Under the pieces are notes generated by a model that saw only the letters and a list, made by a program, of their open reading frames with translations, ran no database searches and was not told where the DNA came from. Made by a program: the position numbers and the translations under genes. Of a stretch of DNA of 64,000 nt, positions 5,249 to 30,304 are shown piece by piece. The DNA comes from an uncultured Pseudanabaenaceae cyanobacterium (lineage in GTDB: Bacteria; Cyanobacteriota; Cyanobacteriia; PCC-9006; JAAUQQ01), in the NCBI GenBank assembly GCA_938002085.1, contig CALLAT010000079.1:945-64944 (forward strand), given 5' to 3'. Position 1 is the stretch's first letter. Every line of letters starts with the position of its first letter.

Positions 5249-6298
5249 ATGCTTACCCTACCCATCACCGTGGCTCAGCATTTAGGAGCTGCCACCACAG
5301 AGCAGCGATCGCCCGCACTCCTCAAGGTCACCCCTGACGGCAAGCTGATCTCCTGGGATGGAGACCTCCAGCAATATGGTCTAGCACAACTCCAGCCCCT
5401 AGAGCCCATCGTCAACCAGCTCTTCTTTTTAGACGGAATCTTTCCGCTCCAGCAAACCCGCGACGCCCTGCCTTGTTTGCAGACTAGCGATGGACTGGCG
5501 ATCGACGTTCATCTCTTTCGGGACGTCGAACATAGCTGGGTGCTACTGCTAGATGCCAGCGGCCAAACCGAGCAAACCACCCGCCTACAGCAAAAGGGAA
5601 ATGACCTCAGCCTGTTGCGCCACCAGTACAGCAAATTGCTCCATCGCTTCTTACAGCAAAGCCTCACCGAAGACCATACCCGCGACCTCCTCTCCCCCCG
5701 CTCATCCAGCAGAGAATCCCAGGCCCAAGAGCAAGACATTTGCGTCCTGCTAATCAAAATTTGTGAGGCCCATCCCCCAGCAGCAAGATCCAGCAGCACT
5801 GCCGCTCCGGAAGCCACAGAAGTACTCCAAACCTTCAATGCCTGTCTGTCCATCATCACCCAAATTGTGGTCGATGAAGGGGGCGTCCTCAATCACATTT
5901 TTGGCGAGACCGCCGTGGCTCTCTTTGGTCTGTTGCCGAGTCAACAAAAAGCCGCTGAACAAGCCGTCTACGCCGCCAAGCGGATGATTCAAAAGTTCCA
6001 GAATGTCACCCAAACCATGGGCCCGCTCCACAGGCCCCAACTTGGATTGGGCACAGGCATTACCACTGGAACCGCTGCATCTGCCATTGTTCGCACCCAG
6101 CACTACAGCGCCCTCAATGCAGTCGGCAACACCGTCCACCGGGCCATGCAGCTCACAGATATTCTCCAAGCCAATCAAATCCTCATTGATGAAGCCACGC
6201 TAGCCCAACTAGAACGGGGACAACAGTCTTTCTTTGGCTTTACGCCCCCCAAGGATCGCTTTGAGGAAGCACTCTATTTCCAGGCGGTGCATTCATGA
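5249..6298 (+). CDS. class III nucleotidyl-cyclase homology domain protein with every catalytic residue substituted (pseudo-cyclase)
   Basis: The C-terminal ~170 aa align by eye to the cyclase homology domain (VLLIKICEA / LNHIFGETAVALFG / LGLGTGITTGTA / AVGNTVHRAMQL / ILIDEAT). The start codon directly abuts the GTPase stop (TAA ATG). Confidence 0.75.
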   Translation: MLTLPITVAQHLGAATTEQRSPALLKVTPDGKLISWDGDLQQYGLAQLQPLEPIVNQLFFLDGIFPLQQTRDALPCLQTSDGLAIDVHLFRDVEHSWVLLLDASGQTEQTTRLQQKGNDLSLLRHQYSKLLHRFLQQSLTEDHTRDLLSPRSSSRESQAQEQDICVLLIKICEAHPPAARSSSTAAPEATEVLQTFNACLSIITQIVVDEGGVLNHIFGETAVALFGLLPSQQKAAEQAVYAAKRMIQKFQNVTQTMGPLHRPQLGLGTGITTGTAASAIVRTQHYSALNAVGNTVHRAMQLTDILQANQILIDEATLAQLERGQQSFFGFTPPKDRFEEALYFQAVHS

Positions 6299-8139
6299 GA
6301 AGCTCCATCCTCGAAAAAATTCTCTCCGCCCTCAAAATCCTGTCCCTGGAATGGACCCATCAGGAACACTTGACCCTGATTGGCAGCCCACCGCCCTGGG
6401 CCAGCCAGGAGTTTGATTGCATTGACCCATCCACACAATGCTTCGAAGCGGCAGAGTTTTCTCCCTTTCTAGAAAATTTTCTGTTTGATGCCCAAGAGTT
6501 CTGGCAGACAGACTCCAATGAATTTCTGCGCTCCGGCTTTTGGAGCGAAACCTTGGCATCGGGAGAGGAGATTAGTCTAGAAGCTGTGGCTCTCCATTTA
6601 GAAGGCCGCAAGATTATCCTGGTGGAATCCTCCGAAGCCAGCTACTCAGAGTCTTTCAAATGGCTCCAAACCGCTCGCCAGGAGCGCCTCAACTTCATCT
6701 CAGAGCGCAAGATCGCCACCACTCAACTGCTCAGCGCCACGTTTTACGATGCCCTCACAGGTCTACCCAATCAAGTCTTCTTTTCATCCCAGCTCAATCA
6801 AACCTTCGAGCACAATTCTCACACTACAAACCCACGGCAGGATTACAGCCCACCGCAACGTAAAGCCGATGCTGAGGTCAAAACTTTTGCGGTAGTGATG
6901 CTCAATATTGACCGTTTCACTACGCTCAACGATAGCCTGGGCCGAGAAATGGGCGATCGCCTCCTGATCGCCTTTGCCGAACGACTCCAAAGTAGCCTGC
7001 GCAAGCAGGACACTCCCGTTCGCTTTGGCTCCGACGAATTTGGCATTTTGCTTCGAGACATTACCAGCGCCAGCGAGCTAACGGCCACCGTCCAGCGCAT
7101 CACCGAAACCCTCAACCAACCCTTTAGCCTCAATCACCAAGAGCACCATATCTCCACCTCCGTAGGCGTCGCTCCGCACGGCAAAAACTACCACCATCCT
7201 CGGGATCTACTGCGCGATGCCAGCATTGCCCTTCACCAAGCCAAAGCCCTAGGACGCGGTCGCTACTTAGTCTTCGACCGAGCCATGCAGGCCAGGGCAT
7301 TAGAACTCTGGAGCCTAGAAAGCGACCTGCGCCGAGCCTTAAAACAGAATGAGCTCCAGGTGTTTTACCAACCCCTTGTGAACCTCAAAACCCACCGAGT
7401 AGATAGCTTTGAAGCCTTAGTCCGCTGGCAACACCCCAGCAAAGGCTGGATTGCCCCAGGGGAATTTGTCCCCATGGCTGAGGAAACAGGTCTCATCTTG
7501 GAGCTGGATGCCTGGGTACTCCAGCAAGCCTGCCAAGTCATCACCGCCTGGCAGAAAATGACGACAACTCCCATGACCGTCAACGTCAATCTATCGTCTC
7601 GCCATTTCAGCGAAACCAATCTGCTGGACAACGTGAAGCGCATCCTTCAAGCCAGCGAAACCCAAGCCCATAACCTCAAACTAGAGATTACCGAGAGCTT
7701 CCTGCTCGGCGATACCCAAGTGGCCACCCAAACCCTCAATCAACTGCGCAGCCTAGGCGTCAAGCTCAGCATTGATGACTTTGGCACCGGCTACGCCTCC
7801 TTGGGGTATCTCCAGGATTTACCCGTGGACAACCTCAAGATTGACGGCTATTTCATCGATACCATGGCCGAAAACAACGCCGAGATCGTCAACACCATCA
7901 TTACGCTGTCCCACAACCTGGGCATTGATGTCACCGCTGAGCGAGTCGAAACCTTAGCGCAATATCAGGAACTTCAGCGCCTGGGCTGCGATTACGCCCA
8001 GGGATTTCTCATTGCCCGGCCTCTCGCAGCGACCGAAGCAGCCAAGTTCATTAATCAAACCTTTGAGCATTTCCTGGCAGCTCCCAAGGCGCAGCCGAGC
8101 CAAGACTCTGCTCCCCCCAAGCTACCCACTGCCGCCTAG
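6295..8139 (+). CDS. GGDEF-EAL protein (c-di-GMP turnover) with an N-terminal sensory domain
   Basis: GGDEF domain features: YDALTGLPNQ and RKQDTPVRFGSDEFGILL. EAL domain features: FEALVRW, LEITES, DDFGTGYASLGYL, LKIDGYFI, YAQGF. It overlaps the upstream gene through an ATGA junction. Confidence 0.9.
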   Translation: MRSSILEKILSALKILSLEWTHQEHLTLIGSPPPWASQEFDCIDPSTQCFEAAEFSPFLENFLFDAQEFWQTDSNEFLRSGFWSETLASGEEISLEAVALHLEGRKIILVESSEASYSESFKWLQTARQERLNFISERKIATTQLLSATFYDALTGLPNQVFFSSQLNQTFEHNSHTTNPRQDYSPPQRKADAEVKTFAVVMLNIDRFTTLNDSLGREMGDRLLIAFAERLQSSLRKQDTPVRFGSDEFGILLRDITSASELTATVQRITETLNQPFSLNHQEHHISTSVGVAPHGKNYHHPRDLLRDASIALHQAKALGRGRYLVFDRAMQARALELWSLESDLRRALKQNELQVFYQPLVNLKTHRVDSFEALVRWQHPSKGWIAPGEFVPMAEETGLILELDAWVLQQACQVITAWQKMTTTPMTVNVNLSSRHFSETNLLDNVKRILQASETQAHNLKLEITESFLLGDTQVATQTLNQLRSLGVKLSIDDFGTGYASLGYLQDLPVDNLKIDGYFIDTMAENNAEIVNTIITLSHNLGIDVTAERVETLAQYQELQRLGCDYAQGFLIARPLAATEAAKFINQTFEHFLAAPKAQPSQDSAPPKLPTAA

Positions 8140-19652: not shown

Positions 19653-21557
19653 ATGAAAGGTAAGGCGAGTACTCAGCAGCCTACCGTCCCATCCACCATG
19701 GTTTCCCCAGCAACGCCTGCCAAACCTGCCCTTGCCCAGTCTCCCTCTGCAACCCAAGGGGTTTCCATCGGAGTCAAGATTTTTGGCATTGCCACGAGTC
19801 TGCTGGGACTGATGCTGCTCGTCGTCTTCGTCTCCACCCATCGGCTGCGCAAGGTCAACGCCGAAATCACCGACCTGGCTCAGTACACCATTCCCATCAC
19901 CGATCGCGTCGCGCAAATCGATGTCCATGCCCTAGAACAAGAACTACACTTCGAGCGGGTCCTCAAACTCTACGAACAGGAACCGCTCGATCAGCGTCGC
20001 ATTCGCACCGAGGTGGCAGAGTTTGAAAAGCTAGACCAGCTGGTGAATCAAGAGTTGGCCGATGCGATCGCCCTAGCCAAAATCGCCATTGAAGAATCCA
20101 AACTCGAAAAAGATCAGGCCGAGTGGGAACAGATCACGCCCATGCTTGAAAGCATTGAGGCCCAACATCAACAGTTTCATGACCATGCCTTAGAAGTCTT
20201 AGCAGTGCTCCAAGCTGGGGACATGGATAAAGCCCATCAGCTGGAAGAACAAATCATTGTTGAGGAAACGAACTTTAACCAAGCCGTCAACGACCTCTTC
20301 CTAGAGCTCGAACAATTCACCGTAGAATCCGCTAAGTTGGGTCAGCAACATCAGCAAACCGTTCAAACGCTGAGCGTGGCCATTGCGCTGATTGCCACCG
20401 CCGTTGGATTGGTTTACGCCCAGCTGGTCAGCCAGGGATTAGTTAGGCCAGTGCGATCGCTCACGAAAGCCATGGCTGCCGTTCAAGCTGGAGATCTAGA
20501 TATTTCCCTCCCAGTGTCCAGCCGCGACGAAGTGGGAACGCTGGCTCGCAACTTCAACGCCATGGTCAAAGAACTCAGAACCAAAGTCCATCTCGAAGAA
20601 ACCTTTGGTAAATATGTTGACCCCCGCATTGTTCAATCCCTGATGGACAATGCCCCCACCACCCGGACTGAAGGCGATCGTCGGGTCATGACCGTGTTCT
20701 TCGCCGATGTCAAAGGCTTGGAGGCCGTTCTCTCTCGGTTGGAGCCTGAGGCTCAGGTCAACCTGATGAACCACTATTTGAACATCATGTCAGCACCCAT
20801 AACGGCCCATGATGGGGTGATCGACAAATTTATCGGCACGGTCATGATGGGCTTCTGGGGACCGCCCTTTTGTGATGCCCAGTGCCATGGTCAGCTGGCC
20901 TGCGAAGCCGCGTTAGAGCAAATCGAACGCCTTCGCCTGTTGCAGCAGCATATTCAAGAACTCACCGGAGAAGCCGCTCCCCTACATCTCCACATTGGCC
21001 TCTCCACTGGCAAACTCGTGGTCGGCAATATGGGCTCTGCCGCCGCCAAGTCCTACACCGTGATGGGCGACACCGTAAATACAGCCTCTCGCCTCAAAGG
21101 GGCCAGCCATCAATACGGCGTCACAGTGCTGATGAATGAAGCGACCCAGCAACAAGTCGCAGACACCATGGACACCCGAGAGCTGGATTTAATTCAGGTC
21201 GTTGGCAAGGAAGAGCCCGTGCGGATTTATGAGCTGCTGGGCCGCAAAGGTGACTTATCCGGTGACCAGCTAGAAGCCAAAACAGCATTTGAGGCAGGGC
21301 TACAGGCCTATCGGCAGCAACAGTGGTCCCTGGCTCGTGCCCAGTTTACCTATAGCCTGGCTTCTTCAGCCCGAGCAGCCTCGACAATCTCTGTCGCCTC
21401 TAAATCTCAAAAAATTGCGCCTACAACAGAAGTCTCTACCATCCCCACAGCCACGATTGAAACACCCGCAACATTGTACTTAGACCGCATCAGGCTTCTG
21501 GAAGCTCAGCCCCCTGGCGAGCAATGGGATGGAGTTTGGCAACTCACGCAAAAATAA
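19653..21557 (+). CDS. membrane class III adenylate/guanylate cyclase (2 TM, helical sensor, HAMP, CHD), C2-like residue set
   Basis: HAMP: RPVRSLTKAMAAVQAGDLDISLPVSSRDEVGTLARNFNAMVKEL. CHD: VMTVFFADVKG, IDKFIGTVMMGFWGPPF, HIGLSTGKLVVGNMG, SYTVMGDTVNTASRL, VVGKEEPVRIYEL. Confidence 0.9.
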   Translation: MKGKASTQQPTVPSTMVSPATPAKPALAQSPSATQGVSIGVKIFGIATSLLGLMLLVVFVSTHRLRKVNAEITDLAQYTIPITDRVAQIDVHALEQELHFERVLKLYEQEPLDQRRIRTEVAEFEKLDQLVNQELADAIALAKIAIEESKLEKDQAEWEQITPMLESIEAQHQQFHDHALEVLAVLQAGDMDKAHQLEEQIIVEETNFNQAVNDLFLELEQFTVESAKLGQQHQQTVQTLSVAIALIATAVGLVYAQLVSQGLVRPVRSLTKAMAAVQAGDLDISLPVSSRDEVGTLARNFNAMVKELRTKVHLEETFGKYVDPRIVQSLMDNAPTTRTEGDRRVMTVFFADVKGLEAVLSRLEPEAQVNLMNHYLNIMSAPITAHDGVIDKFIGTVMMGFWGPPFCDAQCHGQLACEAALEQIERLRLLQQHIQELTGEAAPLHLHIGLSTGKLVVGNMGSAAAKSYTVMGDTVNTASRLKGASHQYGVTVLMNEATQQQVADTMDTRELDLIQVVGKEEPVRIYELLGRKGDLSGDQLEAKTAFEAGLQAYRQQQWSLARAQFTYSLASSARAASTISVASKSQKIAPTTEVSTIPTATIETPATLYLDRIRLLEAQPPGEQWDGVWQLTQK

Positions 21558-21612
21558 CAGGCCCGACCATCAAGCAAATCAACAGTCCAACGAATCGGAG
21601 TCTTCCAGGGTG

Positions 21613-23355
21613 ATGCAACTTTCTACAAAATCTCGCTTCTCATTGCCCATCGGCATGAAGATCTTTGGCGTTGCAACCAGCATGTTGACCTTGTTGCTAG
21701 GTGTGACTTATCTGAGCCATCAGAACATCCGGGATGTGAACCATGAACTGATTGACATTGCTGATTACCTGGCTCCCCTCAACAAAAACCTAGCGGAGAT
21801 CAACGTTCACACCCTAGAACAGGAAATTCACTTTGAGCGCATGGCTCGCTACTACGCCATGGATGACGTGGATAAAGCCAAAATTGCAGCCGAAGCTGAA
21901 GCCTTTGCCCTGCTAGCGCTGAAGGTCACTGGGGAGATTTCCGCTGCGTTGAGCCTGGCAGAGGTGGCTGCCACCCAAAGTTATCTCCCCGAAGACCGGC
22001 AACAAGCAGCCCGGCTGCAAGCCTTTTTGGACATGTTGCAAACGGATCATCAGAGGCTGGAGAAGCTGAGCCGTCAAATTATGGGCAAGCTCGCTGCGGG
22101 TGATCTAGAGGGCGCACAGCGCTTGGATACTCAACTCGCTGAGTTTGAAGATGCCTTTGATGACCGGGTCCAAAAGATTTTATTCGAGCTCTCCGACTTC
22201 ATCGAGACCTCTGCACTGCGCTCCCAAGCCCATGAAGAACAGACCCTCCGCATGAGCTGGGGCTTGGCTGCGATCGCCAGCGCAGTGGGCCTGCTCTTTG
22301 CCTCCCTCGTCACCGCAGGTCTAATCCGCCCCGTGCGCCGACTGGTCGCCCAAACCCATGCCGTTGAGCAGGGCAATCTGGATGTGGAAGTCCCGATTCA
22401 TTCCGGCGATGAAGTGGGCCAGCTCAGCCAGTCCTTCAATGCCATGGTCCATGAGCTGCGAGAAAAGAAGCGGCTCAAGAGCACCTTTGGCCAATATGTA
22501 GACCCCCGCATTGTAGAGACGTTGGTGAAGCAACAGAAACGCCTCCAGACCCAGAGCAGCACTCAAAGCCAAATGATGACGCTGTTTTTCTCGGATATGG
22601 CTGGGTTTAGCAGCATCAGCGAACTGCTCACCCCAACGGGCCTAGTCACCCTCATCAATCAATATCTGACCCTAGCCTCGGCCCCCATCCAAGAGCACCA
22701 GGGCGTCATCAATCAGTTTATTGGCGATGCTGTCAGCGCCTTTTGGGGTGCTCCCTTTGTGGCCCCCGAAGACCATGCCAAGCTCGCCTGCTACGCTGCC
22801 CTAGAGCAATTTGATCAACTGACAAAACTGCGCCGAGCCTTGCCCGAAATCATGGGCATTCGCAAAGGCTTACCGGAGATCAACATCCGCATTGGCCTAG
22901 CCTCAGGCACCGTCGTGGCAGGCAATATCGGTTCAGATCATTCCAAGTCTTACACCGTCATGGGGCCAGCGGTGCAGATCGCGGAGACCTTGGAAGGGGC
23001 CAGCAAAATTTATGGAACGCGGATTTTGATGACGGCAACCACCAAGGAACTGGCTGGGGAGTCAATTGAAATCCGCGAGATTGATCAGATGGTGCTGAGC
23101 GAAGGGACAGAACCGGAGCCGATTTACGAACTATTGGGGATTACTGGCAGCACTGATGAGGGAGTTTTAGAGATGCGCGATCGCTTCCACACAGCCCTCG
23201 CCGCCTATCGCGCCCAGCAATGGGCGGAGGCCGAGACAAGCTTCCAGCTCTGTCTCCAGCAAATTCCTGATGACGGCCCATCCTGCTATTACCTGGCCCA
23301 GTTACAAGCGCATCGAGTCAAACTTCTGCCTGAGCCCGTAGACATGCTTGGCTAG
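21613..23355 (+). CDS. membrane class III cyclase paralog (2 TM, helical sensor, HAMP, CHD), C1-like residue set
   Basis: It has the same architecture as the upstream gene. CHD: MMTLFFSDMAGF, INQFIGDAVSAFWGAPF, RIGLASGTVVAGNIG, SYTVMGPAVQIAETLE. I prefer the ATG at 21613 (MQLSTK...); the track ORF start at 21529 would overlap the upstream gene. Confidence 0.9.
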   Translation: MQLSTKSRFSLPIGMKIFGVATSMLTLLLGVTYLSHQNIRDVNHELIDIADYLAPLNKNLAEINVHTLEQEIHFERMARYYAMDDVDKAKIAAEAEAFALLALKVTGEISAALSLAEVAATQSYLPEDRQQAARLQAFLDMLQTDHQRLEKLSRQIMGKLAAGDLEGAQRLDTQLAEFEDAFDDRVQKILFELSDFIETSALRSQAHEEQTLRMSWGLAAIASAVGLLFASLVTAGLIRPVRRLVAQTHAVEQGNLDVEVPIHSGDEVGQLSQSFNAMVHELREKKRLKSTFGQYVDPRIVETLVKQQKRLQTQSSTQSQMMTLFFSDMAGFSSISELLTPTGLVTLINQYLTLASAPIQEHQGVINQFIGDAVSAFWGAPFVAPEDHAKLACYAALEQFDQLTKLRRALPEIMGIRKGLPEINIRIGLASGTVVAGNIGSDHSKSYTVMGPAVQIAETLEGASKIYGTRILMTATTKELAGESIEIREIDQMVLSEGTEPEPIYELLGITGSTDEGVLEMRDRFHTALAAYRAQQWAEAETSFQLCLQQIPDDGPSCYYLAQLQAHRVKLLPEPVDMLG

Positions 23356-24580: not shown

Positions 24581-27500
24581 CTAGAGAGCAGAACCCTGGT
24601 TAGTCATAGGCTCAGCGACCTGGAAGTAAACATCAACCAAGTCGATGTTGTTGCCAGCCGTGGTCTGAGCAACACTGCGCTCACCCAAGATATTGCCCTG
24701 GGCATCCAGGTTGAATTCGCTGGTGTAGTTCACATTCAGTGCTTCAATACCAGCGTCAGCCAAGGAGCGCAGCTCACCCACATCGGTGAAGCCGTTCTCG
24801 TTAGCATCTTGCCAGAGGCTCAGCTCACCAAAGCCTGCATCAGCAGCGTTAACCCAGCCATCGCCATTGCTGTCAAAACCAGATAGCTTATCGAAGCCAG
24901 CAGCCGGTCCTTCTCCGCCAAACAGTTCGGCGCGAGAGCTAATCAAGCCATCGCCATTGTTGTCAATTGCGAGGAATCCATCCTGACCCGAGAGCCAGCC
25001 GGTGTTGATGGCGGTGCCACTGTTCAACATGTCAAAGGTGACACCCTGGTCAATACTGAGGGTTTGAACGCCATCGCCATTGAGGTCGAGGGCCAGAGGC
25101 GTTTGGAAACCTTGGTCCCAAACATCCACTCTGAACTCACCTTCCTTAGAAGCACCGAAGCTGTCGGTTGCCGTGAAAGAGAACTCACCCAAGTCGCTGC
25201 CGGGCAGACGGTCAAAGCGCCAGGTCTCGCGATACTCGGTATACACCTGAAGCACCAAGCGACCTGTATCCGCATTGAAAGACTTCACATCCCAACCCAT
25301 AAAGCCAGCAGCGTTGTCGTCACCTTGCTCACGACGCTGGTTGGCGAAGTTGAGGCTAAAGGTCAGGTCATCGCCATCGGGGTCAGACACGATTTGGGAG
25401 AGGTCAACCACTAGCTCACGACCTGGGTTGTCGTTACCACCACCGCGATAGGCATCGCCCACGCTGAAATAGTCACCTTGTCCAGTATGAACCGGAGCAT
25501 TGTTAGTGCTAATGAGACCGGCATCTACATTGGGCAAGTGCTGACCTTCGGCGAGGCTCACGAAGCCAGTCAAGCCGAAGGAATCTACATCAGAGTCAAT
25601 CGCGTCATTATTGCCCACATCCTGAGTGGTGAACTCAGTGCGGTCAGGCTGTTCAAATGACAGTTGGTAATCATCAGGCAACAAGTTATCAAACTGATAG
25701 TCGCCGTTGGAATTTGTTGTTGTGCTATCAACAAAATCGCCATTGCCATTGAATAATTCCACTGTGAGTCCAGACTTGCCTGGCTCAGAGGTGAACTTCT
25801 GCTTGAGCGAGACATCGTCAATACCTGCACCATCGCCCAGGTCACCAGAGCCCGAAACAAACTCTAAACTTTGCTGACCGGCTTGCAAGTCTACTTCAAC
25901 AGAGACCGTGCTTTGGCCGCTTGCGACCACAGACCGAACAGTCTGGCCATTGATTTTGACCTCGAAGTCGTTGTCGTTAGGATGCTCATTCAGATTCTCC
26001 AACACGTTGAAGGTCAGAACATAGGTCCCAGCATCGGTGACATTCACATTCTGGCGAAGGACAGAGCCGCCTTCTAACTCAACAACCGCATCACCATGGG
26101 CATTGTTGAAGTCGGAGGAGTTACTCTCGTAAATGCTGACATCGTGGCTAGCCACGGTCCAACCGGGCAGTTCGCTACCGGTAACATGGAAATCTACCCC
26201 ACTATTGTTGAGGCTGTTATTTTCAAAGTTGCCGTTGACAATCAGGTTGGGACCGAAGCCACTGCCGCTGTCCTGGATGCCGTTGCCATTGTCATCATGG
26301 AACGCAGTACCTTCGATGGAGCCGCGCTGAATTGCATCCACAACCACGCTGACATCAGCGGTGTCTTCACCACCATTGCCATCGTTGACATGGTACGAGA
26401 AAGTCTCAGTGCCAGTGAAGCCATCATCAGGGGTAAAGCTGAGTTGGCCGTTGTCTAGCAGGGTGACAGAACCGTTGTCTGTGGCGATCGTCTCGCCCAC
26501 AGAGATGGACTGACCATTCAAAGAGGTAACGCTGAGGGCATCGCCATCGGGGTCGGCATCGTTACCCAAGACATCGATGGTGACAGGGGTTCCTTCATCT
26601 GTAATTGCACTGTCATTCGCTGCATTGGGAGCAACGTTCGGTTCAGGTGCCACAGTCACCACAACGTTAGCCGTGTCTTCGCCACCGTTGCCATCGTTGA
26701 CATGGTAAGAGAATGTCTCTTCACCCACGAAGCCGTCATTGGGTACGAAGCTAAGCTGACCGTCATCCAATAGCGTAACAACGCCATTGTCAGTGAAAAC
26801 AGGTTGGCCGGGTGCCACAGACTCACCATTCAAGGAAGTGATGCTGAGGGCATCGCCATCGGGGTCAGCGTCATTACCAAGAACATTGATGGTGACAGGT
26901 GTACCAAAGTCGGTGCTGCTGCTATCGTCCGTGGCATCTGGAGCGCTGTTGGGGGCAGGGTCGATTGTGACCGTGACCTGAGCAACATCATGACCACCGT
27001 TGCCATCACTGATTTGGTAAGCAAAGGTGTCATTGCCCACAAAGCCATCGTTGGGGGTGTAAACAATCTGCCCATCGACGATTTGAGCATTGCCATTCAC
27101 TGCATTGCCCACAATCTCCTTGATGGAAAGGGTATCGCCATCGGGATCAGTGTCGTTACCCAAAACATCAATGGTGAGAGGGGTATTCACCTCAGTAGTG
27201 CGGCTATCGTTAACCGCATCGGGATTGCTGTTAGGCAAAGGGGTAACGTTAACGAGCACGTTCGCTGTGTCTTCGCCACCATTGCCATCGCTCACATGGT
27301 AAGAGAACGTCTCATTACCAATGAAGCCAGCATTGGGGTTGAAGCTCACTTCACCGTTGGCGAGCAGAGTCGCAGAACCATTGTTGGTGGTAATGGTGTC
27401 ACCCACGGAAACGGCTTGACCGTTGAGGGAGGTAACGCTCAAGGCATCTCCATCGGAGTCACTATCGTTGCCTAGCAAACTGATGGTGACAGGCGTGCCC

Positions 27501-30304
27501 ACTTGGGTGCTGCTGCTGTCATCCGTTGCATTGGGATCACTGTTGCTAGGTACGGCGGGTAAAATGCCAGCATCAACATTGTTGAGCTGTTGACCAGCCG
27601 CGAGGTTAATGACATCCGTCATGCCATTGCTGGGGTCCACATCGGAATCCAGACCTTCGTTACCACCCACGTTTGCCGTGGTAAAGGTCGCACCATCGGG
27701 CAGGCTATCGAAAGTAACTTTGTACTGACCAGCATCGAGATCTTCGAAGCCGTAGAAGCCACCATCGTTGTTGATGGTTTGGACACGAGTGATGTCGTCG
27801 CCTGTGCCAAACTGTCCATCTGCACCAGCACCGCTGAGGGTTGCACGCACACCATTCACGCCGGATTCGCCGTTGTCCAGGATGCCGTTGCCATTCTCAT
27901 CAAGGAACACGCGGTTTCCAATCTTGCCAGTGCCAGGGTCGGGCTCCGGAGAAACCGTAACGCGAACGTTGGCCGTATCTTCGCCACCGTTGCCATCGCT
28001 CACGTGGTAGGAGAAGGTCTCATTGCCCACAAATCCAGCATTGGGGGTGAAGCTCAGCTGGCCATTGTCTAACAGCGTAACGGCACCATTGGGAGTGAAC
28101 ACCGTTTCTCCGGGAACCACGGTCTGTCCTTCGAGGGAGCTCACAGACAGAACATCGCCGTTGGGATCCGCATCGTTGCCCAGCACATCAATCGTGACAG
28201 GTGTTCCAACCAGGGTGCTGCTGCCGTCATCGGCTGCGTTGGGGTCATCATTGGCAGGAGCAGCAATCACGCCTGCATCAACGTTATTGAGCTGCTGACC
28301 TGCGGCGAGATCAATCACCTCAGTCATGCCGGTGTTGACATCCACATCAGAGTCGAGGTGTTCGTCGTTGCCCACATCCTGAGTCGTAAAGGTGGCACCA
28401 TCGGGCAGGTTGTCAAAGGTGACTTTGTACTGGCCCGCATCCAGGTTCTCGAAACCGTAGAAACCACCGTCGTTGTTGATGGTTTGCACGCGGCTGATGT
28501 CGTCACCTGTGCCGAATTCACCGTCAGCACCCGCACCTGCGAGGGTGACGCGCACGCCGTTCACGCCGGATTCGCCGTTGTCGAGAATGCCGTTGCCGTT
28601 CTCATCCAGGAACACGCGGTTACCGATCTTGCCGGTACCGGGGTCAACCGGACCAGAGCCTTCGACAATACCTGCATCAATGTTATTGAGCTGCTGACCT
28701 GCGGCGAGGTCAATTACCTCAGTCATGCCGGTGTTGACATCCACATCAGAGTCGAGGTGCTCGTCGTCGCCCACATTAGCCGTGGTGAAGGTTGCACCGT
28801 CGGGCAGGTTGTCGAAGCGAACCTTATACTGACCGGCATCGAGACCTTCAAAGCCGTAGAAACCACCGTCGTTATTGATGGTTTGTACGCGGCTGATGTC
28901 GTCGCCTGTGCCGAATTCGCCATCAGCACCCGCACCTGCTAAGGTGACGCGCACACCGTTCACGCCAGATTCACCGTTGTCGAAAATGCCGTTGCCGTTC
29001 TCATCCAAGAACACGCGGTTGCCAATCTTGCCTGTGCCGGGGTCTACGGGACCGGAGCCTTCAACGATGCCTGCATCGACATTGTTCAGTTGCTCGCCTG
29101 CTGCGAGGTCAATCACATCGGTCATGCCGGTGTTGACATCCACATCAGAGTCGAGGTGCTCGTCGTTACCCACATCCTGGGTGGTGAAGCTTGCGCCTTC
29201 AGGCAGGTTGTCAAAGGTAACTTTGTATTGGCCAGCATCTAGGTTTTCAAAACCGTAGAAGCCACCGTCGTTGTTGATGGTTTGAACGCGGGTGATGTCG
29301 TCGCCTGTGCCGAATTCGCCATCAGCACCCGCACCTGCTAGGGTGACGCGCACACCGTTCACACCGGATTCGCCGTTGTCGAGAATGCCGTTGCCGTTCT
29401 CATCCAGGAACACGCGGTTACCGATCTTGCCGGTACCGGGGTCAACCGGACCGGAGCCTGCGACGATGCCTGCATCAATGTTGTTGAGCTGCTCACCCGC
29501 TGCGAGATCAATCACCTCAGTCATGCCGGTGTTGACATCCACATCGGAGTCGAGGTGTTCGTCGCTACCCACGTCAGCTGTGGTGAAGGTTGCACCGTCA
29601 GGTAGGTTATCGAAGATGACTTTGTACTGGCCCGCATCCAGGTTGTCAAAACCGTAGAAACCACCATCGTTGTTGATGGTTTGCACGCGGTTGATATCGT
29701 CGCCTGTGCCGAATTCGCCGTCTGCACCAGCACCGCTCAGTGTGACGCGCACACCATTCACGCCGGATTCGCCGTTGTCGAGAATGCCGTTGCCGTTCTC
29801 ATCCAGGAACACGCGGTTGCCAATCTTGCCGGTACCAGGATCGCTGGAGCCAGGGGTGAGGCCGAGGTTGACTTTAGTCGCTTCCGGCGTGCCTGCCGTG
29901 ATGAAGTCCGTCTCAACCAGTCCGGCTGACAGTTCAGTGACGCCATCAGAATCTTTGAAATCGCTGCCAGCCACACCCAAGGAAGGCTCAAACACGTTGG
30001 CAGGACTCAAGGACCGCCCAGCTAAATCGCTATCGCCTTGGTAATCAAACTGAATTTTATAATCACTATTTCCCAAACCATAGATAAAGTAAAATCCTTG
30101 GTCATTTGTGACTGTGGAAGTTACGGTTTGACCATTTTCATTTTCGAAAGCAACAATATTTCCATCGCCATCAACAACCCGTATGGTTACGCCTGAGAAA
30201 CCGGCTTCTTCTTGATTCGTCAAATTCCCATCAGCATCGCGCTGGAGCACGATGCCATCGGCATTAATATCATCAAAAACGCATCCGGTAAAAGACAAGG
30301 ACAT
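24581..30304 (-). CDS. giant repeat-rich extracellular adhesin-like protein (SdrD B-like, bacterial cadherin/Ig-like and lectin-like domains; Ca-binding C-terminal secretion-type domain)
   Basis: 1907 aa, with an ATG at 30304 preceded by AGGAG. It contains at least 7 SdrD-B-like modules (GNRVFLDENGNGILDNGESGVNGVRVTL...GFYGF.NLDAGQYKV.F...DSDVD). It contains 5 cadherin/VCBS-like modules (DD.SST.VGTPVTIDVLGNDADPDGD.LSV.S...FSYHV.DGNGGEDTA.V). One NGNFE...GW...VELEGG...Q.V lectin/DUF642-like module is present. The Asp/Gly-rich C-terminus reads LDLNGDGV...DNNGDGLISS...FDSNGDGWV...DANENGFTD. There is no N-terminal signal peptide. Confidence 0.9.
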   Translation of the reverse strand: MSLSFTGCVFDDINADGIVLQRDADGNLTNQEEAGFSGVTIRVVDGDGNIVAFENENGQTVTSTVTNDQGFYFIYGLGNSDYKIQFDYQGDSDLAGRSLSPANVFEPSLGVAGSDFKDSDGVTELSAGLVETDFITAGTPEATKVNLGLTPGSSDPGTGKIGNRVFLDENGNGILDNGESGVNGVRVTLSGAGADGEFGTGDDINRVQTINNDGGFYGFDNLDAGQYKVIFDNLPDGATFTTADVGSDEHLDSDVDVNTGMTEVIDLAAGEQLNNIDAGIVAGSGPVDPGTGKIGNRVFLDENGNGILDNGESGVNGVRVTLAGAGADGEFGTGDDITRVQTINNDGGFYGFENLDAGQYKVTFDNLPEGASFTTQDVGNDEHLDSDVDVNTGMTDVIDLAAGEQLNNVDAGIVEGSGPVDPGTGKIGNRVFLDENGNGIFDNGESGVNGVRVTLAGAGADGEFGTGDDISRVQTINNDGGFYGFEGLDAGQYKVRFDNLPDGATFTTANVGDDEHLDSDVDVNTGMTEVIDLAAGQQLNNIDAGIVEGSGPVDPGTGKIGNRVFLDENGNGILDNGESGVNGVRVTLAGAGADGEFGTGDDISRVQTINNDGGFYGFENLDAGQYKVTFDNLPDGATFTTQDVGNDEHLDSDVDVNTGMTEVIDLAAGQQLNNVDAGVIAAPANDDPNAADDGSSTLVGTPVTIDVLGNDADPNGDVLSVSSLEGQTVVPGETVFTPNGAVTLLDNGQLSFTPNAGFVGNETFSYHVSDGNGGEDTANVRVTVSPEPDPGTGKIGNRVFLDENGNGILDNGESGVNGVRATLSGAGADGQFGTGDDITRVQTINNDGGFYGFEDLDAGQYKVTFDSLPDGATFTTANVGGNEGLDSDVDPSNGMTDVINLAAGQQLNNVDAGILPAVPSNSDPNATDDSSSTQVGTPVTISLLGNDSDSDGDALSVTSLNGQAVSVGDTITTNNGSATLLANGEVSFNPNAGFIGNETFSYHVSDGNGGEDTANVLVNVTPLPNSNPDAVNDSRTTEVNTPLTIDVLGNDTDPDGDTLSIKEIVGNAVNGNAQIVDGQIVYTPNDGFVGNDTFAYQISDGNGGHDVAQVTVTIDPAPNSAPDATDDSSSTDFGTPVTINVLGNDADPDGDALSITSLNGESVAPGQPVFTDNGVVTLLDDGQLSFVPNDGFVGEETFSYHVNDGNGGEDTANVVVTVAPEPNVAPNAANDSAITDEGTPVTIDVLGNDADPDGDALSVTSLNGQSISVGETIATDNGSVTLLDNGQLSFTPDDGFTGTETFSYHVNDGNGGEDTADVSVVVDAIQRGSIEGTAFHDDNGNGIQDSGSGFGPNLIVNGNFENNSLNNSGVDFHVTGSELPGWTVASHDVSIYESNSSDFNNAHGDAVVELEGGSVLRQNVNVTDAGTYVLTFNVLENLNEHPNDNDFEVKINGQTVRSVVASGQSTVSVEVDLQAGQQSLEFVSGSGDLGDGAGIDDVSLKQKFTSEPGKSGLTVELFNGNGDFVDSTTTNSNGDYQFDNLLPDDYQLSFEQPDRTEFTTQDVGNNDAIDSDVDSFGLTGFVSLAEGQHLPNVDAGLISTNNAPVHTGQGDYFSVGDAYRGGGNDNPGRELVVDLSQIVSDPDGDDLTFSLNFANQRREQGDDNAAGFMGWDVKSFNADTGRLVLQVYTEYRETWRFDRLPGSDLGEFSFTATDSFGASKEGEFRVDVWDQGFQTPLALDLNGDGVQTLSIDQGVTFDMLNSGTAINTGWLSGQDGFLAIDNNGDGLISSRAELFGGEGPAAGFDKLSGFDSNGDGWVNAADAGFGELSLWQDANENGFTDVGELRSLADAGIEALNVNYTSEFNLDAQGNILGERSVAQTTAGNNIDLVDVYFQVAEPMTNQGSAL
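28247..29842. repeat. 4 tandem copies of a 399-bp (133-codon) repeat inside the adhesin gene, plus a fifth dispersed copy at ~27560-27937
   Basis: The protein unit DPGTGKIGNRVFLDENG...GSGPV is exactly 133 aa and repeats back to back. Near-identical shadow ORFs in the track recur at a 399-nt spacing (28324, 28723, 29521). Confidence 0.9.

Follow-up and report, generated by a model that had tools for sequence, protein, structure and literature searches.

Two neighbouring genes encoding membrane-bound class III cyclase homologues lie at positions 19653..21557 and 21529..23355 on the + strand of the window, the 64,000-nucleotide stretch of DNA from an uncultured Pseudanabaenaceae cyanobacterium that was analysed here (assembly GCA_938002085.1, contig CALLAT010000079.1). 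Gene 1 encodes a protein of 634 aa, although its true start may be Met16 (19698), where many orthologs begin. Gene 2 encodes 608 aa from ATG 21529, or 580 aa from ATG 21613, which has GGAG 12 nt upstream (21597-21600) and may be the true start. The junction at 21529..21612 is therefore either a 29-nt overlap of the two reading frames (21529-21557) or a 55-nt spacer. No + strand terminator-like site lies between the genes, so they are probably one operon. The two proteins are paralogs, 40% identical over 536 residues (E 9e-137), and share the architecture TM, four-helix-bundle sensor, TM, HAMP and class III cyclase domain. Gene 1 continues into a TPR-like tail, whereas the C-terminal WDGVW...K motif is missing from gene 2.

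Hydropathy analysis revealed in each protein two hydrophobic segments flanking a helical region of about 175 residues. In gene 1, TM1 (aa 39-61), the periplasmic four-helix-bundle sensor (aa 62-238) and TM2 (aa 239-262) are encoded at 19767..20438. An AlphaFold model of gene 1 shows four long helices there (39-108, 114-148, 152-187 and 191-278) with pLDDT about 90. The sensor family is only tentatively assigned, since the 4HB_MCP and TarH profile hits, including a weak 4HB_MCP_1 hit in gene 1 (E 0.0016), fall below cut-off. Conserved residues of the gene 1 sensor region include H92, E95, Q96, E97, E101, R102, H172, Q173 and H233. The HAMP domains (PF00672) are located at 20430..20579 in gene 1 (aa 260-309, E 6e-17) and 22318..22464 in gene 2 (aa 264-312, E 1.5e-16). 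Both cyclase homology domains match Guanylate_cyc (PF00211; E 1.9e-14 and 3e-14) above the gathering score (54.1 and 53.5 bits against 21.9), and the phmmer E values to CyaB and CyaC are 5e-30 and 1.4e-22. The gene 1 model also matches P. aeruginosa CyaB (3r5g) with a TM score of 0.86.

Each cyclase domain retains only part of the canonical catalytic residue set. The gene 1 domain (20688..21215, aa 346-521) keeps the substrate Lys K392 (20826), T469 (21057), N476 (21078), R480 (21090) and the loop Lys K519 (21207). It has lost the second metal Asp (T396, ACG at 20838-20840) and the phosphate Arg (H447, 20991), but still has the first metal Asp, D352 (20706). Conversely, the gene 2 domain (22561..23109, aa 345-527) keeps both metal Asp residues (D356 at 22594; D400, GAT at 22726-22728), the GF motif and the phosphate Arg (R454 at 22888). 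It has lost the substrate Lys (Q396, 22714), the Asn (Q483, CAG at 22975-22977), the Arg (T487, ACC at 22987-22989) and the loop Lys (G526, 23104). The full set is thus present only across the two chains. Most of this mapping had first been made by eye in a sequence-only reading, and every residue and codon it named was confirmed. phmmer alignments to CyaB (3r5g) and Spirulina CyaC (1wc0) are ungapped around each motif and place these residues opposite the canonical D, K, D, N, R and K. Neither these nor the profile alignments put a genuine Asp of gene 1 at the second metal position, or Asn/Arg of gene 2 at their catalytic positions.

The complementary pattern is not restricted to this locus, and is far beyond chance. 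Among 207 relatives, 79 proteins are of the gene 1 type (T1; D-K-T-T-N-R-K in gene 1 itself), 82 are of the gene 2 type (T2; D-Q-D-T-Q-T-G in gene 2 itself) and 46 form a fully canonical sister clade. In T1 proteins the K, T, N and R are each present in 79/79, as is a loop K/R, whereas the second Asp is present in 0/79 (T 72, S 4, P 3) and the first Asp drifts (62 D, otherwise E/Q/H/N/T/V/R). In T2 proteins both Asp are present in 82/82, but Asn in only 2/82, Arg in 6/82, the loop Lys in 6/82 and the substrate Lys in 44/82. Class membership was defined by the same residues whose conservation is reported, a circularity that is addressed only by a neighbour-joining tree built without the seven catalytic columns. 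In this tree T1 (77/77), T2 (78/78) and canonical proteins (46/46) are each perfectly monophyletic, and the split is therefore one old event maintained by selection. T1 and T2 are closer to each other (mean distance 1.13) than to the canonical bacterial sister clade (1.22 and 1.15), and all three are bacterial 2TM-HAMP proteins. The asymmetry therefore arose within this bacterial family, although eukaryotic sequences were not included in the tree.

A blind scan of columns that are at least 90% conserved in the canonical clade also revealed two complementary sets. T1 alone relaxes F349, S351, F356 (GF), E361, G395, D396 and R447, whereas T2 alone relaxes D391, K392, M399, D473, V475, N476, R480, G518 and K519. 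The positions whose roles could be assigned from established knowledge fall into the C1 set (GF loop, the Gly and second Asp, the phosphate Arg) and the C2 set (substrate Lys, Asn, Arg, loop Lys) of mammalian adenylate cyclase. Consistent with this division, phmmer places gene 1 on the C2 halves of AC8 (1036-1129) and AC5 (1173-1249), and gene 2 on the C1 halves (AC8 414-549, AC5 467-608, VC1 chains) and on sGC alpha subunits. These data argue against the possibility that the pair is a non-catalytic pseudo-enzyme receptor, in which both cyclase domains serve only as nucleotide-binding or scaffolding output modules. Each protein alone does lack canonical residues, and degenerate cyclase domains do occur, for example in the ORF at 5249-6298 of the same window. 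However, a dead domain would not keep exactly one complete complementary half-set invariant across several phyla while the other half drifts, and taken together the pair holds one full canonical site. We therefore consider this explanation very unlikely.

The two types are also linked genomically. All 13 T1 genes examined in their locus (window included) have a T2 gene next to them on the same strand, in either order and often with overlapping frames; in one of these the T2 carries an in-frame stop. In contrast, 62 canonical relatives from the metagenome scan and 76 from the genome scan are single. A further 29 T1/T2 pairs share a contig, and no T1/T1 or T2/T2 pair does. Partner distances are correlated (r = 0.89, against a maximum of 0.36 in 1000 permutations), and both genes evolve at similar rates, so neither is a decaying pseudogene. 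An alternative is that each protein works as its own homodimer, with reduced or unconventional chemistry or a different substrate, and that adjacency only reflects a tandem duplication. Bacterial class III cyclases are generally described as homodimers (PMC4821796), tandem canonical paralogs exist, as in locus L007, and gene 1 keeps one metal Asp. Yet in 17 of 79 T1 orthologs the first Asp is also gone, so that a T1 homodimer would have no metal ligands at all, and T2 homodimers would lack Asn, Arg and the loop Lys in over 90% of members. Strict co-occurrence in the 13 loci examined and co-divergence are not expected for independent enzymes. Furthermore, single mutants of Rv1625c at the equivalent positions (D300A and R376A) are each inactive, but complement each other in a heterodimer (PMC4821796, citing Guo 2001). 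Independent homodimers thus appear very unlikely.

It is similarly improbable that T2 is mainly a regulatory or dominant-negative partner, titrating gene 1 or other canonical cyclases of the cell into inactive or differently regulated heterodimers. T2 does keep the dimerisation modules and a sensor of its own, and heterodimer-based modulation is known for chytrid NeoR/RGC (PMC12264004). But T1 by itself lacks the second metal Asp, so there is no active enzyme to down-regulate, and the invariant Asp pair, GF loop and phosphate Arg of T2 are exactly what a catalytic contribution requires and would be dispensable for an inhibitor. Canonical relatives are not found next to T2 genes.

Taken together, the two genes probably encode the subunits of an operon-encoded, obligate heterodimeric adenylate cyclase receptor of class III (subclass IIIb-type), a proposal that we hold with good confidence but for which biochemical and structural evidence is lacking. 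The proteins are proposed to pair along their whole length, through TM helices, periplasmic four-helix bundles, HAMP and cyclase domains. In the composite active site, gene 1 would supply the adenine-selecting Lys392 and Thr469, the transition-state Asn476 and Arg480, and the phosphate Lys519, and this site should convert ATP to cAMP. The opposite site, made from T396 and H447 of gene 1 and Q396, Q483, T487 and G526 of gene 2, is predicted to be dead, as it could not bind metals or stabilise the transition state, and neither homodimer could assemble a complete site. Gene 1 still has the first metal Asp, however, and Thr396 is 91% conserved, so a residual or unconventional function of that pocket cannot be excluded. 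Some bacterial class III cyclases also tolerate non-canonical substrate-specifying residues. The subclass assignment rests on Thr or Ser replacing Asp at the second substrate-specifying position, paired with Lys, which appears to be the IIIb signature: T469 in gene 1 (79/79 T1), T476 in gene 2, and K392 invariant in T1. The best structural relatives, CyaB and CyaC, probably also belong to this subclass. The pair is inferred to have arisen by one ancient tandem duplication of a canonical homodimeric HAMP-cyclase, followed by complementary degeneration (subfunctionalisation) that makes the two genes mutually dependent.

The central inference of the sequence-only reading, that complementary loss of catalytic residues predicts an obligate heterodimer with one active and one dead site, is therefore supported, but three of its points require correction. 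It described two receptors with different sensor domains whose coincidence would be needed for output. The sensors are instead homologous four-helix bundles, 31% identical, sharing a His/Glu-rich motif, and because the TM, sensor and HAMP modules dimerise together with the cyclase domains, the pair is better seen as one heteromeric receptor. The suggested degenerate regulatory pocket is not supported on the gene 2 side, where those positions drift much faster than the rest of the domain. Finally, cAMP/cGMP output had been left open, but the substrate residues are Lys plus Thr, which points to cAMP rather than cGMP.

Bacterial class III cyclases are treated as homodimers with two equivalent sites, and split, asymmetric active sites are regarded as a eukaryotic elaboration (PMC4821796); we found no description of a bacterial pair such as this one. 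A natural, conserved bacterial heterodimer would show that the C1/C2-type asymmetry evolved more than once, and would provide a clean case of complementary degeneration that locks two paralogs together. It would also offer a simple two-gene system, presumably expressible in E. coli, for studying why one-site asymmetric cyclases are advantageous and how a heteromeric TM/HAMP receptor drives a single catalytic centre, questions that are hard to address in 12-TM mammalian enzymes. For annotation, about 160 proteins now labelled generically as adenylate/guanylate cyclases are predicted to be inactive alone. More tentatively, and less likely than not, the pair could be the founding example of a widespread family of natural two-gene heterodimeric class III cyclases, an independent, convergent invention of the split active site occurring in cyanobacteria and Desulfococcaceae, with same-type proteins labelled Latescibacteria and Tectomicrobia by their sources. 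Its periplasmic input would then also be heteromeric, with an asymmetric four-helix-bundle sensor whose conserved His/Glu/Gln cluster is possibly a metal or small-ligand site, so that one ligand-binding event at a non-symmetric interface would control a single catalytic centre.

Among known systems, bacterial homodimeric 2TM-HAMP class III adenylate cyclases have the same domain architecture and fold, but the natural enzymes are canonical homodimers with two equivalent sites. The engineered Rv1625c D300A and R376A heterodimer shows that a bacterial cyclase dimer with one composite site is active (PMC4821796), but is a laboratory construct, whereas here the complementation is natural, fixed and conserved across phyla. 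In chytrid rhodopsin-guanylyl cyclases (NeoR with RGC1 or RGC2), two different membrane-receptor cyclases encoded in one gene cluster act only as a heterodimer, with only one of the two sites catalytically active (PMC8815786, PMC12264004). These are eukaryotic, have rhodopsin sensors and make cGMP, and since RGC1 and RGC2 retain all catalytic residues, their heterodimer requirement is attributed to the rhodopsin or linker regions rather than to complementary loss. Soluble guanylate cyclase also comprises two separate, paralogous polypeptides, alpha and beta, whose cyclase domains complement each other to give a single active site, and gene 2 matches sGC alpha catalytic domains in the PDB search. 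However, sGC is eukaryotic, soluble, haem/NO-regulated and GTP-specific, with H-NOX, PAS and coiled-coil modules instead of TM, 4HB and HAMP. The division of labour is the same as in mammalian membrane adenylate cyclases (the C1/C2 pseudo-heterodimer, e.g. AC5 and AC8, and VC1-IIC2 structures), where one domain supplies the two metal Asp residues and a phosphate Arg, and the other the substrate Lys, the transition-state Asn and Arg, and a loop Lys, resulting in one active site and one degenerate pseudo-symmetric site. Here the halves are two polypeptides from adjacent genes rather than one chain, each with two TM helices, a periplasmic four-helix bundle and HAMP instead of 6TM bundles; the subclass signature is IIIb-like (Thr) and not IIIa (Asp), there is no evidence that the dead site is a conserved ligand pocket, and the origin is independent, as T1 and T2 are each other's closest relatives beside a canonical bacterial clade.

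Two open reading frames (ORFs) on the same strand, at 19653..21557 (634 aa, gene 1) and 21529..23355 (608 aa, gene 2), match Pfam HAMP and the class III cyclase domain Guanylate_cyc above the curated cut-offs. The two proteins are 40% identical over 536 residues (E 9e-137), although identity varies by region, at 31% in the sensor, 54% in HAMP, 44% in the cyclase domain and 20% in the C-terminal tail. Each has two hydrophobic segments around a helical region of about 175 residues. An AlphaFold2 model of gene 1, built on 24 orthologs (mean pLDDT 78.5), shows four long helices between the TM segments, followed by HAMP, an alpha/beta cyclase domain and a helical TPR-like tail, and the cyclase part superposes on P. 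aeruginosa CyaB with TM 0.86. The tail of gene 1 carries a 28-residue Ser/Thr/Ala-rich insertion (aa 576-603, 21378-21461) that 95% of its orthologs lack and that is predicted to be disordered, with pLDDT below 50. The reading frames overlap by 29 nt if gene 2 starts at ATG 21529, whereas an alternative ATG at 21613, preceded by GGAG, would leave a 55-nt spacer and matches ortholog lengths better. No + strand terminator-like site lies between the genes, although promoter and terminator scans gave fewer hits than shuffled controls and were not used as evidence.

Catalytic residues were mapped by phmmer alignment to solved cyclases, with gene 1 aligned against CyaB (3r5g) and gene 2 against CyaC (1wc0) and CyaB; the alignments are ungapped around every motif, and all codons were read back from the DNA. 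The first metal Asp is kept in both proteins (D352 in gene 1, D356 in gene 2). Gene 1 keeps the substrate Lys (K392), the transition-state Asn (N476) and Arg (R480) and the loop Lys (K519), but has T396 (ACG, 20838-20840) in place of the second metal Asp. Conversely, gene 2 keeps the second metal Asp (D400, GAT at 22726-22728), but has Q396, Q483, T487 and G526 at the positions of the substrate Lys, transition-state Asn, transition-state Arg and loop Lys, respectively. The second substrate position is Thr in both (T469 and T476), and the combination of Lys plus Thr at the substrate positions appears to be the IIIb-type adenine signature. The sequence-only reading, which had proposed this complementary loss of catalytic residues between two paralogous HAMP-cyclases, is therefore correct in every detail of the observation. 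As an independent indication, phmmer places gene 1 on the C2 halves of AC8 and AC5, and gene 2 on the C1 halves of AC8 and AC5, on isolated VC1 chains and on sGC alpha subunits.

To establish whether this pattern is selected or accidental, two searches of a collection of 5.8 billion proteins were conducted, which gave 210 relatives. Among these, proteins 57-61% identical to gene 1 come from marine Leptolyngbya-like cyanobacterial MAGs, and PF26769 is listed for some homologs. The cyclase domains were aligned to an HMM and the seven catalytic columns were read. In the 79 proteins of the gene-1 type (T1), Lys, Thr, Asn and Arg are each present in 79/79, and the loop Lys in 76/79 with Arg in the other three; the second Asp is never present (Thr 72, Ser 4, Pro 3), and the first Asp is replaced in 17. 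In the 82 proteins of the gene-2 type (T2), both Asp residues are present in 82/82, whereas Asn is kept in 2, Arg in 6, the loop Lys in 6 and the substrate Lys in 44. A third group of 46 proteins is fully canonical, and the remaining five proteins were incomplete at one or more of these columns and were left unclassified.

Because these classes were defined by the same columns, we rebuilt the comparison without them. A neighbour-joining tree on 570 other columns gives exactly monophyletic T1 (77/77), T2 (78/78) and canonical (46/46) clades, with T1 and T2 closer to each other than to the canonical clade. The split is therefore a single ancient duplication followed by complementary loss. In addition, a blind scan of all columns at least 90% conserved in the canonical clade shows two complementary sets. 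T1 alone relaxes F349, S351, the Phe of the GF phosphate loop (356), E361, G395, D396 and Arg447, the last of which is probably equivalent to the C1 phosphate Arg of the VC1-IIC2 structures. T2 alone relaxes D391, K392, M399, D473, V475, N476, R480, G518 and K519, plus the C-terminal WDGVW...K motif. This motif, of unknown function, lies at 21525-21554 in gene 1; it is nearly invariant in T1 and in canonical relatives, but lost in about half of T2 proteins, including gene 2. The positions whose roles could be assigned match the mammalian C1-role and C2-role sets, so the scan recovers that division without prior assumption.

The two types are also linked in genomes. In Desulfococcaceae bacterium HSG8 they are adjacent with a 4-nt overlap, in the order T2 then T1, and in Leptolyngbya sp. 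SIOISBB they are 38 nt apart, in the order T1 then T2. A metagenome scan with patterns common to all three clades returned 80 loci, of which eight hold a complete T1/T2 pair, one more (L120) holds a pair in which the T1 has an alignment gap at the Lys column, sixty-two hold a single canonical gene, and none holds a T1 without a T2. Counting the window and the loci L002, L081 and L082, 13 of 13 T1 genes have a T2 neighbour on the same strand, in both gene orders. In L002 (4315-7605; Cyanobacteria bacterium P01_E01_bin.42) the T2 is interrupted by an in-frame stop codon while the adjacent T1 is intact, which could reflect a sequencing error or decay of the partner. The two T2-only loci are a contig that ends just after the T2 (L095) and a 1.6-kb fragment whose T2 is likewise split by an in-frame stop (L100). 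A divergent T1 subgroup on the marine metagenome contigs L089 and L117 has the pattern G-K-T-T-N-R-M, so that both metal Asp positions and the loop Lys are changed, yet it is still paired with a T2 gene upstream; a further locus, L101, holds a lone 'NNDTNRT' protein of unclear type.

A scan of a genome collection, which was saturated by generic motifs, returned mostly distant canonical single-gene cyclases and was useful only as a contrast set: seventy-six of its 79 loci are single canonical genes. One locus, Bryobacteraceae MAG L007 (1071-4586), has two fully canonical HAMP-cyclase paralogs in tandem, 67% identical and 3 nt apart, and this may be what the ancestral state before complementary degeneration looked like. 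No T1/T1 or T2/T2 pair shares a contig. Moreover, pairwise distances among T1 proteins correlate with those among their partners (r = 0.89, against a maximum of 0.36 in 1000 partner permutations), and mean divergence is similar for the two types (0.76 against 0.67). Both genes are under comparable constraint and are inherited as a unit.

No other neighbouring gene is conserved. In the window the neighbours are a LysR regulator and a pirin upstream and an alpha/beta hydrolase downstream, and the Desulfococcaceae and Leptolyngbya loci have unrelated neighbours. Elsewhere in the window, a 349-aa ORF at 5249-6298 (+) has a marginal cyclase-domain hit (22.2 bits against a cut-off of 21.9) with fully degenerate catalytic columns ('-HENHQ-'), and overlaps by 4 nt the start of a GGDEF-EAL protein at 6295-8139 (+); this may be a second, unrelated pseudo-cyclase coupled to c-di-GMP signalling. 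A 1907-aa protein at 24581-30304 (-) is made of several nearly identical repeats, each well over 100 residues long (motif 'GTGKIGNRVFLDENGNGILDNGESGVNGVRV...'), plus other repeat types and a C-terminal region, and is probably a large secreted or surface adhesin-like protein.

The best-supported explanation of these findings is an obligate heterodimer, in which gene 2 supplies the metal and phosphate half and gene 1 the base and transition-state half, together forming one composite ATP-to-cAMP site, while the pseudo-symmetric second site is non-functional. Heterodimerisation, activity and ATP specificity are inferences from comparative evidence, but we regard this mechanism as likely. Neither homodimer can be complete, since T1 homodimers lack the second Asp, and in 21% of orthologs lack both, whereas T2 homodimers lack Asn and Arg. 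Laboratory complementation of the inactive Rv1625c D300A and R376A mutants shows that such a one-site bacterial dimer is active (PMC4821796). Class-specific charge switches could contribute to partner selectivity, namely E482K in 91% of T1, S486E in 95% of T2, and an acidic residue at position 315 in 73% of T1 where T2 and the canonical clade are always basic, but this is speculation.

The interpretation made from the sequence alone is supported, but its picture of two receptors with different sensor domains acting in coincidence, and of a degenerate regulatory pocket, requires two refinements. Firstly, the sensors are homologous and share conserved H92, E95, Q96, E97, E101, R102, H172, Q173, H233 and Q/E234 (19926-20354, gene 1 aa 92-234, and the equivalent part of gene 2). 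These residues are much less conserved in the canonical sister clade, and could form a metal or small-ligand site of the heteromeric sensor. The TM, sensor and HAMP modules must dimerise together with the catalytic domains, and the unit is therefore better seen as one heteromeric receptor than as a coincidence gate of two independent receptors. Secondly, the T2 residues that line the dead site drift, with a pairwise identity at large distances of 18% against 61% for the whole domain, whereas the T1 side is about as conserved as the domain average. We therefore see no evidence for a conserved forskolin-like regulatory pocket, although Thr396 is 91% conserved.

The pair is conserved in cyanobacteria and Desulfococcaceae, and same-type proteins are labelled Latescibacteria and Tectomicrobia by their sources. 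All source annotations of these proteins are generic, and NCBIfam has no specific model for them. Bacterial class III cyclases have been stated to require homodimerisation, in contrast to mammalian pseudo-heterodimers (PMC4821796). Full-text literature searches found no natural bacterial two-gene heterodimeric class III cyclase, although prior mention cannot be excluded because key reviews lay outside their reach. A 2004 survey of actinobacterial cyclases contained no mention of heterodimers in the text searched (PMC2447327), and R. centenum GcyB and GcyC do not provide a precedent, as they are described as non-catalytic subunits of a guanylyl cyclase (PMC4681086).

By descent, as judged from a tree without eukaryotic sequences, the pair is not a member of the eukaryotic lineages of asymmetric cyclases, but belongs to the bacterial 2TM-HAMP IIIb-type cyclases and evolved its asymmetry within that family. 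We regard it as a bacterial, split-gene, convergent version of the asymmetric class III cyclase. Functionally, the pair is inferred to work like mammalian C1/C2 and sGC alpha/beta. It also resembles the chytrid NeoR/RGC heterodimeric receptor cyclases, where only one site is active (PMC12264004); in those fungal proteins, however, RGC1 and RGC2 keep all catalytic residues (PMC8815786).
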